4,547 nt of DNA from a virus. Its lineage: Duplodnaviria; Heunggongvirae; Uroviricota; Caudoviricetes. Below, in pieces: positions 1 through 4,547 of the stretch. Under the pieces are notes generated by a model. That model ran no database searches and had not been told where the DNA came from. It was given only the letters and a program-made list of their open reading frames with translations. The stretch lies in the IMG/VR virus record IMGVR_UViG_2548876941_000010; one strand, given 5' to 3'. How positions within the stretch are numbered: the stretch's first letter is position 1; each line of letters opens with the position of its first letter. The position numbers were made by a program, and so were the translations under genes.

Positions 1-405
1 TCCGCGTGCGCTTAGCCGCATTCACCGCATCACAAAATTCACTTTAAAAAGGGCGGACATCAGTTCATGGGCAAACAGATGCCGCCAAACGTCACCAGAA
101 AATTGATAACAGAGGGCGTTGCAGCGGGGTTGTCACTTAAGCGTATGGTCAACCTGACAACCCGGTGTCCTCAACGGGGAAGGAATAACCCCGCCATACT
201 TACCGCCGCGCCATTTCGCGGGTTGCCACAACCGGAAGCGCACGGTCGACGAAAATTTAACGACAGGCTATCTATGAACCAGCTACCTCGCCGTGCGCTT
301 TCGCGTTATGGTCTGACTTTTCAGGGAAATATCCTTTCAGTAAACTGTCAGTGCCGGATGCTCACCCGTGTCCGGCGCACGCACTCTACCTCACCCGTGA
401 ATAAA

Positions 406-780
406 TTAATGATTAATTGATATTTTATAGGTGGATTCAACTTTCCCATCGGATGTGTGATGCTTTAAATCACAGGAATTAATACTGCTTGCTGTAAAGT
501 GATTTTCAAGGGGGTCTATTCGAATCCCTTTCTTTTTCATTAACAGGCCAAATCCCTTATTAATGATGTCCATTAATTCCAGAAAGTATTTTTCATGTAA
601 ATCCTGGTTATCAGAGAGCTGCTTCTCTTTGTATAGCCCGATAAAGGCTCGGCGCACGTTACCGGATATATTATCGATGGTTTCTTTTTCTACGGTACTC
701 AGGTCAAGAGTAGCCAATTGAGAACGAACTATATTCGCTGCCATTTCCTGGAATGGTATTGGTAAATCTTTAAATTCCAT
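406..780 (-). CDS. hypothetical protein, AT-rich accessory gene; second gene of leftward two-gene operon
   Basis: Open frame on minus strand ending at TAA (408..406). The ATG at 780..778 has a GAGG Shine-Dalgarno 6 nt upstream; the ORF track uses an alternative ATG at 792 with no SD. Region is visibly AT-rich with several ATA codons, unlike the neighbouring upstream gene. No family recognised from the protein sequence. Confidence 0.55.
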   Translation of the reverse strand: MEFKDLPIPFQEMAANIVRSQLATLDLSTVEKETIDNISGNVRRAFIGLYKEKQLSDNQDLHEKYFLELMDIINKGFGLLMKKKGIRIDPLENHFTASSINSCDLKHHTSDGKVESTYKISINH

Positions 781-791
781 CGTCAACCTCA

Positions 792-1022
792 TCAGTCAGT
801 GTTTCTGGCTAACCAGCGACGCGCGCCAGATTCGGTTTTAAGCGTTTTGCTTTTGGTATACGTCATTGCGGTGAACGTACCGTCCTGGTTTGGGAACACG
901 CCGCACACCAGAGATTCGTTGTTGCCAAGATCGATAGTATCCATGCTGACCTCATTTCCCCTTAACGCCGGGGTAGCGGAACAAAAACCTGCTGCATAGT
1001 TAAAGTTGAACCCTGCCGTCAT
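792..1022 (-). CDS. hypothetical small protein; first gene of leftward operon
   Basis: 76-codon minus-strand ORF with mostly common enterobacterial codons (CTG, CGT, ACC, GGC, AAC). Its TGA stop (794..792) lies 11 nt before the SD-preceded ATG of the next gene, or overlaps the alternative ATG by 1 nt. An internal ATG at 944..942 with a GAGGT SD would give a 50-aa product. The antisense plus-strand ORF 799..999 has poorer codon usage. Confidence 0.45.
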   Translation of the reverse strand: MTAGFNFNYAAGFCSATPALRGNEVSMDTIDLGNNESLVCGVFPNQDGTFTAMTYTKSKTLKTESGARRWLARNTD

Positions 1023-1096
1023 GTTCTTACGCCTCGGGCTGGCTACTTAACCCCTGACCACTGCCGGGTAACTCGAAGTATTGCCCGGCGTTCTGT

Positions 1097-1105
1097 GGGG
1101 GGGGG
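1097..1105. repeat. G9 homopolymer tract (C9 on the minus strand)
   Basis: Nine consecutive G at 1097..1105, between the left palindrome (1122..1160) and the start of the leftward operon (1022). Confidence 0.9.
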
Positions 1106-1121
1106 TTGGTGAAAATAATCT

Positions 1122-1160
1122 ACAATTAAAAACTGTTTTATGTCAACAGTTTTTAATTGT
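1122..1160. promoter_or_regulatory. 39-bp perfect palindrome; putative operator (OL-like) with embedded leftward promoter
   Basis: ACAATTAAAAACTGT (1122..1136), 9-bp spacer, ACAGTTTTTAATTGT (1146..1160); the arms are exact reverse complements. On the minus strand the spacer contains TTGACA (1146..1141), followed about 18 nt later by TAGATT (1122..1117), a plausible sigma-70 promoter reading leftward. Confidence 0.5.
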
Positions 1161-1170
1161 TGGTTTAGGC

Positions 1171-1196
1171 AAAAAAACTCCCTCGAATGAGGGAGT
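1171..1196 (-). terminator. intrinsic (rho-independent) terminator for the repressor transcript
   Basis: GC-rich 7-bp stem CTCCCTC (1178..1184) / GAGGGAG (1189..1195) with a 4-nt loop. On the minus strand the hairpin is followed directly by a run of seven T (plus-strand A7 at 1171..1177). It sits about 170 bp downstream of the repressor stop. Confidence 0.6.
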
Positions 1197-1366
1197 ATGA
1201 AAATTGTTCTGCTTAGATAGAGAAGGGAAATTGTCGTCGGGCATGCACAATATTTGCAATTTCAATGCTTGAAGTTGTAACTGTCTTCTTGTTCGGTTGT
1301 TTCGAATTCTGAAACTATCGGAGAAAGGGCTGTACTCATGGCATAACTCCTCTTCTTGTTCAGTGG

Positions 1367-1768
1367 TCACGCCAGGCGGCTTTTTTGTGCCGCTAACCAT
1401 CGGGCAATGGTTTCTTCCATTGATTTTTTCTTGTCTTTGATTTCTTGAAGCATTTTTTCCTGGTCTTCCTCAGGAAACGCACTAAAAGCTTGGAGCAGTT
1501 CGCGTTGGCGAGGACCAATTTTCATCGTATCAGGGGTGAAAATTTGCTCCCTCTCTTCAGGAGGCAATAAAAACCAATGCAATGGATGCCCTGTAACCTC
1601 AACCAGTTTATCCAAACTTGAGGCTTTAGGTGTTGCCTTACCGCTGACCCATTGTTGAACAGTTTGCTGTGTCACACCAATTCTACGGGCAAGCTCAGCC
1701 TGGCTCCATCCAGTTTCCTGAAGAAGCTTGCTGATTCTGTACATAGATACTTCTAGGGCGTTCATCAT
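1367..1768 (-). CDS. XRE-family helix-turn-helix repressor (cI/RacR-like prophage repressor), no peptidase S24 domain
   Basis: 133-aa ORF with an N-terminal HTH signature (SQAELARRIGVTQQTVQQWVSGKATP). It is transcribed divergently from a Cro-like gene. The C-terminal ~60 aa is short and shows no Ser/Lys autoprotease motif. The start may be the second ATG (1765), which has a GGAA 4 nt upstream. Confidence 0.8.
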   Translation of the reverse strand: MMNALEVSMYRISKLLQETGWSQAELARRIGVTQQTVQQWVSGKATPKASSLDKLVEVTGHPLHWFLLPPEEREQIFTPDTMKIGPRQRELLQAFSAFPEEDQEKMLQEIKDKKKSMEETIARWLAAQKSRLA

Positions 1769-2580: not shown

Positions 2581-3570
2581 ATGAAGCTCCTTTTTGCTGA
2601 ACGCCCGCTGGTTATAAACACGCAGCTGGCGATGAAAATTGGTCTGAACGAAGCCATCGTGTTGCAGCAGCTGCATTACTGGTTGAGAGATACCGGTTCC
2701 GGCATGGAATGTGATGGTGTTCGCTGGATTTATAACACAACAGAACAATGGCTGGAACAGTTCCCTTTCTGGTCAGAGTCAACGTTAAAACGCGCATTTG
2801 CAAGTCTGAAAACGCTGGGGCTTTTGCGTTGTGAAAAGCTCAACAAATCAAAGCGTGATATGACTAATTTTTACACGATTAATTACGAGAGCGAGCTTTT
2901 AGATGGTGGCAAAGTGAGCGAATCCATCATGTCAAAATGCGCCGCTCCATCAGGTCAAAATGACACGATGGAAGGAGCCAAAATGACACGCTCCATTGGT
3001 TCAAAACGACCCAATGTCATCGGGTCAAAATGGCCCGATGATCTTACAGAGAATACAACAGAGATTACTACAGAGAATACAACAGAGATTACTACAGAGA
3101 ATAAAAACACTTCTCGTCCGGAAGCTTCGCAACCGGACAGGCAGACGGCTGAACAGGATTTTTTAACCCGACACCCTGACGCTGTTGTGTTCAGTGCGAA
3201 AAAACGCCAGTGGGGCAGCCAGGAAGATTTGGCGTGTGCGCAGTGGATCTGGGGGCGAATCGTGAGTCTTTACGAGCAGGCTGCCAGCGATGATGGCGAA
3301 ATCATGCGACCGAAAGAACCAAACTGGACTGCATGGGCCAATGATGTGCGCACAATGCGGATGCTGGATGGCAGAACTCACAGACAAATTTGCGAAATGT
3401 TTGGTCGGGTACAGCGGGATCCATTCTGGGTAAAAAACGTCATGAGCCCGTCAAAGCTTCGCGAAAAATGGGATGAGCTGGTTATTCGTCTGGGGCGTTC
3501 GCCTGTACAGCGTTGCGTGAATCACATTTCTGAACCGGATAACGAAATTCCGCCGGGCTTCAGGGGGTAA
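2581..3570 (+). CDS. phage replication initiation protein (O-like / replisome organiser) with origin repeats embedded in the linker
   Basis: 329-aa ORF with SD GGGAGGGG directly upstream of the ATG. The N-terminal ~90 aa has the winged-helix pattern seen in phage replication initiators (LAMKIGLNEAIVLQQLHYWL ... STLKRAFASLKTLGLL). The central region is encoded by iterons and tandem repeats. The C-terminal ~150 aa is a separate domain I cannot assign. Confidence 0.8.
   Translation: MKLLFAERPLVINTQLAMKIGLNEAIVLQQLHYWLRDTGSGMECDGVRWIYNTTEQWLEQFPFWSESTLKRAFASLKTLGLLRCEKLNKSKRDMTNFYTINYESELLDGGKVSESIMSKCAAPSGQNDTMEGAKMTRSIGSKRPNVIGSKWPDDLTENTTEITTENTTEITTENKNTSRPEASQPDRQTAEQDFLTRHPDAVVFSAKKRQWGSQEDLACAQWIWGRIVSLYEQAASDDGEIMRPKEPNWTAWANDVRTMRMLDGRTHRQICEMFGRVQRDPFWVKNVMSPSKLREKWDELVIRLGRSPVQRCVNHISEPDNEIPPGFRG
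2925..3040. repeat. iteron array (five ~23-bp repeats), putative replication origin
   Basis: Core GTCAAAATG(A/G)C-like motif recurs with its CAAAA starting at 2933, 2956, 2979, 3002 and 3026 (spacing 23, 23, 23, 24 bp). Four units carry their own flanking inverted arms: CCATC/GATGG, GGAGC/GCTCC, CATTGG/CCAATG and CATCGGG/CCCGATG. The first unit is degenerate. Confidence 0.55.
3046..3103. repeat. perfect 24-bp tandem duplication plus partial third copy (A-rich, built from 12-bp subrepeats)
   Basis: ACAGAGAATACAACAGAGATTACT at 3046..3069 is repeated exactly at 3070..3093, then ACAGAGAATA at 3094..3103. It encodes TENTTEITTENTTEITTEN in the replication protein and directly follows the iterons, the usual position of an AT-rich unwinding region. 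Confidence 0.85.
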
Positions 3571-4033: not shown

Positions 4034-4173
4034 CGAGATTAAAGTGCATTAGTTCAGATGTAAATTGACATTTTGTGGCACAGGGTAGAGCTAGCGTGGT
4101 TGTCCGCTTTGTGCCAAAAGCAGATATTGATAACATTGAGATATGTTAATTTATAGGGAGCAGCTCAAGGCCC

Positions 4174-4192
4174 ACTGGAACTTCCAGTTTTT
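4174..4192 (+). terminator. candidate intrinsic terminator for the rightward early operon
   Basis: Inverted repeat ACTGGAA / TTCCAGT around a central C, followed by a TTTT(T) run on the plus strand (4188..4192). The stem is AT-rich, so strength is uncertain. Confidence 0.4.
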
Positions 4193-4228
4193 GCCCCTGA
4201 AACCGTTCCCAGTGAGCACTTCCACCTG

Positions 4229-4250
4229 AAGACTGCGCAGTCTTAGTTTT
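4229..4250 (+). terminator. second hairpin, possible weak terminator
   Basis: 16-bp perfect palindrome AAGACTGCGCAGTCTT (4229..4244) followed by AGTTTT on the plus strand. It lies between convergent genes. Confidence 0.3.
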
Positions 4251-4271
4251 CGTTGCCTTTAGTTTATCCCT

Positions 4272-4547
4272 TTATGATACCGATAAAAACTTTTTTGTAA
4301 TTTCTGCTGCCGTTTTCTCCATGCTGGGATATACAGTGCTTTCGGATATATTAAGCTGCGCCAGTTCTTCCAGAATTTTATTTTTGTTCGCTATCTCCAC
4401 TCTGTTAAGAGGAAACTCAGCATCTGTTTCCGGTAAAATGGGATCAAGTCCGAACAGAAGAAAAGCTCCTGCCTGAGATTGTATGCGTTCATTATTTATT
4501 TTAGCCTTAAGGAAAACAACTTTCCTTAAGTCATCAGGAATTATTCT
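4272..4547 (-). CDS. hypothetical protein, C-terminal 91 codons only (5-prime end beyond the window), AT-rich accessory gene
   Basis: Minus-strand frame is open from the window edge to TAA (4274..4272) and translates to ...QAGAFLLFGLDPILPETDAEFPLNRVEIANKNKILEELAQLNISESTVYPSMEKTAAEITKKFLSVS. It is convergent with the rightward operon and AT-rich. No family recognised with confidence. Confidence 0.55.
   Translation of the reverse strand, partial: RIIPDDLRKVVFLKAKINNERIQSQAGAFLLFGLDPILPETDAEFPLNRVEIANKNKILEELAQLNISESTVYPSMEKTAAEITKKFLSVS

Follow-up and report, generated by a model that had tools for sequence, protein, structure and literature searches.

The window, that is, the whole stretch of 4,547 nucleotides analyzed here, carries next to the immunity region, as the initial annotation described, two tightly linked, leftward small genes, which lie in minus-strand open reading frames at 792-1022 (gene 1) and 406-792 (gene 2) and are separated by an 11-nt gap. 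From right to left, the features of the locus are the following:

1367-1768, minus strand: DicA/cI-like repressor, 133 aa (Pfam HTH_3, 2e-13)
1213-1339, minus strand: RelE/ParE toxin-antitoxin remnant (identified by alignment to L001, a relative in which the pair is intact)
1117-1160, minus strand: predicted PL-like (dicBp-like), sigma-70-like promoter (promoter scan, 10/12 positions matched)
945-1110, minus strand: conserved 5′ untranslated region of the operon (91-94% nucleotide identity, from about 1110, in all loci compared)
792-944, minus strand: gene 1, ydfA-like, 50 aa, DUF1391 family (Pfam PF07151), sequence MDTIDLGNNESLVCGVFPNQDGTFTAMTYTKSKTLKTESGARRWLARNTD
406-780, minus strand: gene 2, 124-aa cassette protein (phrog_6937; start codon ATG 780)
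625-780, minus strand: shared N-module of gene 2 (codons 1-52)
409-624, minus strand: variable C-module of gene 2 (codons 53-124)
101-400, minus strand: conserved untranslated leader, DicF precursor region (homologous to the K-12 ydfC-dicF spacer)
51-100, minus strand: DicF small RNA variant with terminator hairpin (Rfam RF00039; U-run at 46-50)

Anatomy of the leftward operon

The repressor scores 53 bits against the NCBIfam DicA model NF007257, under the cut-off of 101, and is followed by its own terminator (1177-1196), which insulates the operon promoter downstream. The RelE/ParE remnant occupies a slot that is cotranscribed with the repressor and lies outside the operon. It arose by an internal deletion of about 350 nt: positions 1150-1277 of the window align with 4856-4983 of L001, a relative with an intact RelE/ParE pair beside the repressor, and positions 1274-1420 align with L001 5332-5478. 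What is left encodes the first 22 aa of the antitoxin and the last 19 or so aa of the toxin, in different frames.

The PL-like promoter that had been proposed for this region was recovered, with a -35 box TTGACA at 1146-1141 and a -10 box TAGATT at 1122-1117, directed leftward and separated by an 18-nt spacer. It overlaps an operator palindrome at 1122-1160 (ACAATTAAAAACTGT-N9-ACAGTTTTTAATTGT), and this palindrome of 39-41 nt has a second copy at 1805-1843, in the repressor-cro intergenic region. Because nucleotide homology to other loci ends at about 1110, the segment 1117-1160 is immunity-specific. A consensus scan detected no minus-strand promoter or terminator between 1117 and 101.

Gene 1 is a member of the DUF1391 family (PF07151; 6.4e-28 and 96.6 bits compared to a cut-off of 27.3), which runs counter to the original impression that neither protein belongs to a recognizable family. 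Positions 1-47 of the 48 in the model align with residues 28-74 of the 76-aa open reading frame; the gene also matches phrog_751 and is nearly identical to the 51-aa YdfA of K-12. Of the two lengths initially considered, 76 and 50 aa, only the shorter one stands, as does the length of about 124 aa given for gene 2; the 76-aa form was rejected as not conserved. Among 45 haplotypes of gene 2-centred loci, homology extends only about 12 codons upstream of the MDTID start, a stretch that takes in the Shine-Dalgarno region, and beyond this point there are unrelated sequence, in-frame stops and frame-shifted stretches; the 26 codons earlier counted as a possible N-terminal extension are contained in the 5′ untranslated region. 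The 50-aa gene has a GAGG Shine-Dalgarno motif 5 nt ahead of ATG 944 and a stop codon at 792-794, and evolves under purifying selection in its own frame only (pN/pS of 0.20, compared to 1.3-1.9 in the other frames of gene 1 and gene 2). As the first gene, of about 50 codons, after a DicA/RacR-type repressor, it holds the position of ydfA in K-12 and in relatives of this element, and its DNA is present in 4102 of the 5426 complete E. coli genomes. The AlphaFold2 model has a low-confidence beta3-alpha fold (pLDDT 65) and gave no match in a Foldseek search of the PDB (best E value of 1), and the best hit of a YdfA profile search of the PDB, to 19 residues of a phage head decoration protein (E 0.018), was judged to be due to chance. 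Pfam, NCBIfam and PADLOC yielded no toxin, antitoxin or defense match for gene 1, only DUF1391, and a literature search found no functional study of the DUF1391/ydfA/ydaF family.

Gene 2 starts at ATG 780, which is preceded by a Shine-Dalgarno motif (TGAGGT) that overlaps the stop codon of gene 1; gene 2 is probably translationally coupled to ydfA. The length of 124 aa agrees with phrog_6937, with the RefSeq annotation of relatives and with the position of the Shine-Dalgarno motif, whereas a 128-aa form was rejected because ATG 792 lacks such a motif. With a pN/pS of 0.21 in its own frame compared to 1.3-1.8 in the other frames, gene 2 is, by this measure of selection, a real gene. Its composition differs sharply from that of its neighbors, in accord with the shift that had been noticed at the outset: the GC content is 0.51 in gene 1 (GC3 0.58, no ATA codons in the 50-aa core), 0.37 in gene 2 (GC3 0.38, five ATA codons) and back at 0.55 in the leader downstream, with the change falling at the boundary between the two genes. 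A composition unlike that of the flanking phage genes is characteristic of morons, and the locus had been described as a moron position; however, no promoter or terminator of its own was found, and the sole promoter shares the operator of the repressor.

The leader begins 6 nt past the stop codon of gene 2 in 72 of the 73 gene 2 loci, is 78-99% identical to other loci independently of the cassette and, in a comparison by eye, matches positions 3090-3380 of the K-12 locus L002. DicF aligns to RF00039 over the full length of the model (positions 1-52; 43.5 bits, E 2.4e-8), below the gathering score of 48; the first 19 nt are those of K-12 DicF, the 3′ half departs from the common allele, and the terminator hairpin folds at -17.3 kcal/mol with UUUUU next to it. 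A plus-strand open reading frame at 67-420 was dismissed as a gene because it stays open in no more than 15 of 52 haplotypes.

The leftward unit thus continues past gene 2 into the leader and DicF, with no terminator found by the consensus scan directly 3′ of gene 2, and the original description of a two-gene operon does not hold. In relatives (H1 and H21), the order beyond DicF is dicB, DUF1482/ydfD, exo (an exonuclease), xis and int, and dicB is present downstream in 58 of the 59 gene 2 loci whose sequence extends far enough. The position of dicB falls beyond the left end of the window, so its presence in this element is inferred from the relatives. Here, then, are a promoter upstream of ydfA that is predicted, from its repeated operator, to be controlled by the repressor and, on the same strand, a long untranslated leader followed by DicF. 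Taken together, it is highly likely that the two small genes form the first, promoter-proximal coding segment of a Qin-type ydfA...dicF-dicB early-left operon of a lambdoid prophage. This operon type is well studied (for its structure and processing, see PMC5069750, PMC9438474 and PMC10448788), and its recognition removes a false lead, given that the pair shows no sign of a toxin-antitoxin or defense module; the pair being the start of a dicBF operon, annotation can name ydfA, the DicF leader and DicF at this locus.

A modular protein family in an exchangeable cassette

Searches for a known domain or fold were negative for gene 2. There was no match in Pfam, NCBIfam or PADLOC, the defense models of PADLOC-DB v2 returning no families for either protein at E values up to 1, and the best hits among PDB sequences were at the level of noise (E 0.19 with the single sequence and 0.28 with a profile). 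The AlphaFold2 model (pLDDT 64) consists of three helices and a tail, with the last 34 residues modeled as disordered, and Foldseek searches of the PDB and BFVD retrieved only generic helical bundles (best E values of 0.8-1.9). The protein is predicted to be small, soluble and mildly acidic (pI 6.2), and no membrane segment or enzymatic domain was found in it. The possibility that gene 2 encodes an antiterminator of the N type or an analogue of cIII was rejected, given the mild acidity, the absence of an arginine-rich motif and the lack of similarity.

Gene 2 matches phrog_6937 from end to end (1.6e-76) and shares only the N-terminal 55-64 or so residues with phrog_1363, phrog_2151 and phrog_9419. 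The shared part, predicted to form two helices with the consensus MEFKDLP..IQEIAA..NVRDAFTGLY, contains residues that are invariant across alleles only 40-50% identical to each other. Proteins with this N-module carry many unrelated C-termini, at least 9 in all, and different N-module alleles also occur on the same C-module (P0072 and P0085). Although PHROGs keeps 6937, 1363, 2151 and 9419 as separate families, these sequence comparisons suggest that the four form one modular family, whose members share the N-module and differ in C-modules that can be swapped. The conservation of the N-module could be partly due to recombination homology rather than to functional docking. Searches of Pfam with seven alternative C-terminal variants produced nothing below an E value of 0.03, and truncated alleles of 106-109 aa exist.

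The family is small, phage-borne and found mainly in Escherichia phages. When 1.84 billion representatives were searched exhaustively with a HMMER profile, only 49 matches were obtained, nearly all via the N-module, and a search of a 5.8-billion protein set with the N-module profile returned mostly fragments. A 2331-aa match with 8 short stretches in the former search was judged to be low-complexity noise. Stx phage PA2 and a Rac-like prophage also have N-module genes in an early-left position; in the latter, the family member lies upstream of KilR.

The two genes do not form an obligate pair. The slot after ydfA holds many different genes, including ydfB+ydfC, to which gene 2 is unrelated (hhalign probabilities of 0.4% for YdfB and 0.1% for YdfC; separate clusters in the slot census). 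DUF1391 is encoded upstream in all 80 gene 2 loci but is not adjacent in 22 of these, where it ends about 410 nt upstream of gene 2, and members of the N-module family are found in loci without ydfA as well as in loci without DicF. Gene 2 DNA is present in 848 of the 5426 E. coli genomes, so that ydfA is about five times more common. The two genes are not, therefore, conserved as an obligate adjacent pair.

On either side of the cassette, nucleotide homology to other loci breaks off at discrete positions (802, 785, 724, 621 and 464 on the left; 399, 381 and 321 on the right), in agreement with the mosaic acquisition that had been suggested for the AT-rich second gene. Judging by these breakpoints, the AT-rich cassette is exchangeable, gene 2 being one of its alleles, and is flanked on each side by a conserved block of host-like GC content; the stretch from ydfA to the DicF leader serves as a hotspot of recombination. 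The positive result of this analysis is that the hotspot holds a modular protein family hitherto undescribed as one family.

Possible roles of the cassette protein

The sole promoter found carries the operator of the repressor. In K-12, DicA represses dicBp 22-fold (PMC10448788), and by analogy little expression of the operon genes is expected in the lysogen, with activation upon loss of the repressor. Transcription would start at about 1110, from the promoter whose operator recurs between the repressor and cro, and would proceed through the conserved 5′ untranslated region, ydfA, the 124-aa cassette gene and the leader of about 300 nt to DicF and, past the window, to dicB, ydfD, exo, xis and int, to go by the relatives. 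Given that such a transcript reads through the leader into DicF, the 3′ untranslated region of the gene 2 mRNA would be the source of DicF, and because DicF is processed from this region, the cassette may influence DicF output.

Most E. coli carry the dicBF operon, and EHEC strains often have several copies. Three of its products, DicF, DicB and YdfD, are directed at the host. A variable cassette in an operon of this kind is accordingly a reasonable place for further host- or phage-directed small proteins. We tentatively propose that the N-module is a common docking or oligomerization part and the C-module determines target specificity. The gene 2 protein would then be a soluble accessory effector, produced early and directed, once derepression has occurred, at a target in the host or in a competing phage, and would share a functional class with its operon neighbors. 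The broader and more speculative possibility is that proteins with the MEFKDLP N-module comprise an undescribed polymorphic effector family of enterobacterial lambdoid prophages, in which, at a fixed early-left hotspot, a docking module is recombined with C-terminal modules that set specificity and can replace one another, driven by an arms race in exclusion or counter-defense. The hotspot would then occupy the beginning of the early-left operon or a site close to it, in this locus the interval from ydfA to the DicF leader, and the 124-aa allele would be one such effector.

Several alternatives deserve consideration. Gene 2 could encode an early anti-defense or host-takeover protein that inhibits a host immunity or housekeeping factor, with lambda Ral or Gam as the closest analogy; the diversity of C-modules would then reflect an arms race against host targets that vary. 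The small, soluble, mildly acidic protein, the conserved N-module joined to hypervariable modular C-termini, the purifying selection inside each allele and the retention of an early-left, repressor-controlled position in Stx phages and Rac-like elements are all contextual observations compatible with such a role, but no known anti-defense protein is similar by sequence or fold, and a pI of 6.2 is too mild for a DNA mimic; we regard this as conceivable but doubtful. Somewhat less probable is a role of gene 2, by itself, as a cassette for superinfection exclusion or anti-phage defense that acts at low basal or stationary-phase expression or, like DicB, upon transient derepression. Gene 2 is AT-rich, polymorphic and horizontally exchanged, as many defense morons are; DicB, encoded in the same type of operon, protects against lambda when expressed (PMC6832061), and ydfA transcripts from dicBp are detectable in stationary-phase K-12 (PMC10448788). 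Against this role are the negative PADLOC search, the absence of a dedicated promoter or terminator, the presence of the repressor's operator in the only promoter found and the lack of a membrane segment or enzymatic domain. In addition, deletion of dicB alone restored plating of λvir on K-12 (PMC6832061), a mapping of lambda resistance that does not, however, cover gene 2 because K-12 lacks this cassette.

Two further readings fare considerably worse. That gene 2 has no protein function and serves as a spacer or carrier that provides the mRNA context and the 3′ untranslated region for DicF biogenesis would fit the wholly unrelated content that the slot accepts, the truncated alleles and the concentration of conservation in the flanks rather than in the cassette, but is improbable in view of the frame-specific purifying selection, the N-module residues that stay invariant between highly diverged alleles and the occurrence of the family where DicF is absent. 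Least probable is that ydfA and gene 2 are a type II toxin-antitoxin pair or a two-component abortive-infection system, as the initial annotation surmised in considering a toxin/antitoxin or anti-phage pair. The genes are indeed small, tightly linked and probably coupled in translation, and they adjoin the immunity region, a site of toxin-antitoxin modules such as the intact RelE/ParE pair of L001. Yet the pairing is not obligate, with so many other genes following ydfA, DUF1391 non-adjacent in over a quarter of the gene 2 loci, family members without any ydfA and the unequal abundance of the two genes, and this lack of co-conservation largely refutes a toxin-antitoxin pair. Furthermore, neither protein matches a toxin-antitoxin or defense family in PADLOC, Pfam or NCBIfam, no promoter dedicated to the pair was found, and, as indirect evidence, Plac-driven expression of K-12 ydfABC-ydfD without dicF and dicB caused no toxicity or growth inhibition (PMC5069750).

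Comparison with known systems

The accessory genes downstream of the lambda PL promoter (ral, sieB, kil, cIII, gam) are small and non-essential. Gene 2 resembles these genes, as well as kilR and sieB of Rac, in its small size and its location downstream of a leftward early promoter, but is similar to none of them in sequence or structure. Whereas sieB and rexAB have an independent promoter, gene 2 has none, so no expression would be expected from a fully repressed prophage.

The closest counterpart is the Qin dicBF operon of E. coli K-12, reportedly described by Bouche and Bouche in 1989 and Faubladier in 1990. Its gene order is ydfA-ydfB-ydfC-dicF-dicB-ydfD (Balasubramanian 2016, PMC5069750; Ragunathan 2023, PMC10448788). 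The locus analyzed here differs from it in three respects: a single unrelated 124-aa gene replaces ydfB and ydfC (hhalign probability below 1%); the immunity region (repressor, operator, cro) differs in specificity and is accompanied by a Rac-like right arm (YdaS, YdaT, DUF977); and the 3′ half of DicF is divergent, with a score just below the Rfam threshold. The common features are a DicA-type repressor followed by a leftward promoter with ydfA as the first gene, an untranslated leader of about 300 nt, DicF with the same 19 nt at the 5′ end and a terminator hairpin and, in near relatives of this element, dicB, ydfD and an exonuclease next in order. Gene 1 itself matches the DUF1391 proteins YdfA and YdaF over the whole length, with the same size of about 50 aa, the same repressor-adjacent position and no substantive difference.

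The early-left operon and its control

The window is a lambdoid prophage immunity region, with the following features around the leftward promoter:

1367-1768, minus strand: HTH_3 repressor of 133 aa, weakly DicA-like (NF007257, 53 bits, under the cut-off)
1177-1196, minus strand: intrinsic terminator of the repressor
1146-1117, minus strand: sigma-70-type promoter, TTGACA-18-TAGATT
792-944, minus strand: gene 1, ydfA-like
406-780, minus strand: gene 2, the cassette gene
101-400, minus strand: untranslated leader
51-100, minus strand: DicF small RNA
Plus strand: YdaS-type cro, YdaT-type gene, O-like replication gene and DUF977 gene

Transcription of the repressor is halted by its terminator ahead of the leftward promoter, which overlaps a 39-nt palindrome, ACAATTAAAAACTGT-N9-ACAGTTTTTAATTGT, at 1122-1160. 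The palindrome recurs with 76-83% identity at 1805-1843, in the repressor-cro interval. Because the leftward promoter and the OR region share the same operator, this promoter is a true PL analogue, as the initial annotation had proposed. Homology to other prophages stops exactly below the left operator copy, at about 1110.

Between the repressor stop (1367) and the terminator lies a decayed RelE/ParE toxin-antitoxin module (1213-1339, minus strand) that has lost about 350 nt relative to the intact pair in a related locus of E. coli CP180607, retaining antitoxin codons 1-22 (ATG at 1339) and, in a different frame, the last ~19 codons of the toxin. Being co-transcribed with the repressor, this slot represents the region's real 'moron/TA' position, expressed in the lysogen. 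On the plus strand, the O-like replication gene (2581-3570) contains a tandem peptide repeat, TENTTEITTENTTEITTEN, at ~3045-3105, which, by analogy with lambda O, may be an intragenic iteron/origin region; its last 20 residues show weak similarity to DnaT (NF002770, E 0.0024). Past the DUF977 gene, the AT-rich stretch 4040-4547 holds only short minus-strand ORFs (e.g. 4272-4400) and continues off the window.

The initial annotation described a two-gene operon; no terminator follows gene 2, and neither a terminator nor a promoter was found on the minus strand between 1117 and 101. Instead, starting 6 nt past the gene 2 stop, positions 400-101 are a ~300-nt homologue of the untranslated ydfC-dicF spacer of K-12, followed by a full-length match to the DicF family (Rfam RF00039, E 2.4e-8, 43.5 bits against a gathering score of 48) that shares its first 19 nt exactly with K-12 DicF and forms a hairpin with a U-run after it. 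Since the score falls just under the gathering threshold, default Rfam annotation misses DicF here. In gene 2-containing viral contigs, the leader lies immediately 3' of gene 2 in 72 of 73 cases and dicB is encoded downstream on the same strand in 58 of 59; the nearest E. coli relatives with annotation continue past the left edge of the window with dicB, DUF1482/ydfD, exonuclease, xis and int. A repressor-controlled early-left transcript thus carries ydfA, the cassette gene, the DicF precursor and DicF, and the locus very probably belongs to the published dicBF operon type (ydfABC-dicF-dicB-ydfD).

[quoted passage not shown] By analogy, the operon described here would be silent in the lysogen and expressed on derepression, and DicF would be processed out of the 3' UTR of the cassette gene.

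The DicF allele combines the canonical 5' 19 nt with a divergent 3' hairpin, in which the unaligned loop segment is one base shorter and the 3' arm carries one deletion. Most related loci match just its first 28 nt, a comparison that points to several 3'-half variants of DicF among prophages. The leader (GC 0.55) is 78-99% identical between prophages irrespective of the preceding cassette, and a 42-nt piece of it (~340-381) with a GCCGGA...TCCGGC hairpin is kept even in Stx phage PA2, where it sits right after an N-module gene (see below) and no DicF was detected. A plus-strand ORF antisense to the leader (67-420, 117 aa) was rejected as spurious: just 15 of 52 leader haplotypes keep it open, its length variants are not divisible by three, and it has no family matches.

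Two real genes and an exchangeable cassette

Both ORFs are real genes, with pN/pS among related loci of 0.20 for the gene 1 core and 0.21 for gene 2 in the annotated frames, and 1.3-1.9 in the other two. For gene 1, 76 or 50 aa had been considered. In 45 haplotypes from loci picked solely for gene 2 content, agreement 5' of the MDTID start (ATG 944) extends for ~12 codons, including the Shine-Dalgarno (SD) sequence, and beyond that the haplotypes are either unrelated or contain stops in frame or frame-shifted segments; conservation thus does not extend to the 76-aa reading, and gene 1 encodes 50 aa. The length of about 124 aa given for the second gene stands: ATG 780 is preceded at the correct spacing by GAGG, and PHROG 6937 and the RefSeq relatives begin at MEFKDL. 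The alternative ATG 792, which has no SD, was discarded. Gene 2 starts 11 nt from the ydfA stop, which its SD overlaps, an arrangement that suggests translational coupling to ydfA.

The abrupt composition shift between the genes, with an AT-rich second gene containing ATA codons (five), is confirmed.

Table. Base composition of the two genes and the leader
Gene 1: GC 0.51, GC3 0.58
Gene 2: GC 0.37, GC3 0.38
Leader: GC 0.55, GC3 0.53

Nucleotide comparison with loci holding other contents in the slot between ydfA and the leader shows a common left block that begins at ~1110, the predicted transcription start directly below the immunity-specific operator, and ends discretely at 802 (the ydfA stop), 785, 724, 621 (where the N- and C-modules meet) or 464; the common right block restarts at 399, 381 or 321. 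Given these discrete breakpoints on both flanks, the proposed mosaic acquisition of gene 2 is correct, and the gene occupies a hotspot of exchange bounded by two conserved blocks.

A modular family and the question of a defence pair

The statement that neither protein resembles a known family is wrong for gene 1, which matches DUF1391 (PF07151) at 96.6 bits (cut-off 27.3), the family that includes YdfA of K-12 Qin; a member of its cluster is named 'YdaF family protein' at the source. Gene 2 has no Pfam match. Gene 1 DNA is present in 4102 of 5426 complete E. coli genomes, in up to 8 copies per genome, and no functional assignment was found in the literature on DUF1391, ydfA or ydaF. Gene 2 DNA occurs in 848 of the 5426 genomes, and the exact protein, always labelled 'hypothetical protein', in 73 public contigs of E. 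coli and E. albertii. The structural searches yielded no significant match for either AF2 model: gene 1 is predicted as a beta3-alpha fold (pLDDT 65) and gene 2 (pLDDT 64; Foldseek) as helices 8-22, 32-53 and 59-83 with residues 91-124 unstructured. With a pI of 6.2 and no hydrophobic segment, the gene 2 protein is soluble.

Among 80 viral contigs centred on DUF1391, the slot is filled by the window-type protein, by ydfB (alone or together with ydfC), by small unrelated ORFs, or by one of at least 8 further proteins (52-216 aa) whose resemblance to gene 2 is confined to the first ~55 residues. This N-module is merely 40-50% identical between alleles, with M1, E2, F3, K4, L6, P7, Q11, A14, R43, A45, F46 and L49 invariant. 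Some proteins (P0072 and P0085) join a divergent N-module allele to the C-module of the window, and there is a C-module that is found as an ORF of its own as well (clusters C62 and C71). A profile run against 1.84 billion representative proteins recovered only 49 relatives, nearly all via the N-module, with C-termini ranging from none to ~150 aa; named members come from Escherichia and a few Salmonella. PHROGs assigns N-module proteins to 6937, 1363, 2151 and 9419, all of unknown function, and the tested C-terminal variants contain no Pfam domains. Gene 2 thus appears to belong to a modular family not previously described as such.

The suggestion of a toxin/antitoxin or anti-phage pair fails on co-conservation and gained no positive support. 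The neighbourhood comparison showed that the two genes are not an obligate pair: many different genes can follow ydfA, and for 22 of the 80 gene 2 loci the end of DUF1391 lies ~410 nt 5' of gene 2 without adjoining it. In PPompW phages an N-module gene follows ydfC; in Stx phage PA2 it adjoins recT, and in a Rac-like prophage (L166; GCA_006259655.1, AAEZMU010000010.1, 3389-6163) a distant N-module protein (101 aa) is the first gene past the repressor, ahead of a Phage_ASH/pRha antirepressor-like gene, KilR and exonuclease VIII. DUF1391 is absent from the latter two loci. The conserved feature of N-module genes is their early-left, repressor-proximal position rather than partnership with ydfA, and the Rac-like locus shows that the family accompanies division-inhibitor operons of both the dicB and the kil type. 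Neither protein matched PADLOC or the toxin and antitoxin families of Pfam and NCBIfam. In K-12 experiments, which take in YdfA and not gene 2 of the window, a Plac-driven operon with ydfABC and ydfD, lacking dicF and dicB, did not inhibit growth (PMC5069750), and lambda-vir resistance was lost on deletion of dicB only (PMC6832061).

Judged from context, gene 2 alone may be an exclusion or counter-defence effector. The favoured model, drawn from family architecture only and of low probability, is that of a soluble early accessory effector whose N-module would dock or oligomerise and whose C-module would set target specificity.

Comparison with known systems

The locus is ordinary and largely explained: it is the known dicBF operon in a new combination of alleles, in which gene 1 is a known DUF. 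Its modest interest lies in the ydfA-to-leader slot, a recombination hotspot with a modular protein family not yet described as such. The operator, with 15-nt arms and a 9-nt spacer, was seen in only one copy per site, in contrast to the tripartite OL and OR of lambda. Gene 1 (50 aa) and K-12 YdfA (51 aa) are alike in length. The slot that holds ydfB and ydfC in K-12 Qin is occupied here by the unrelated gene 2 (hhalign probability <1%).
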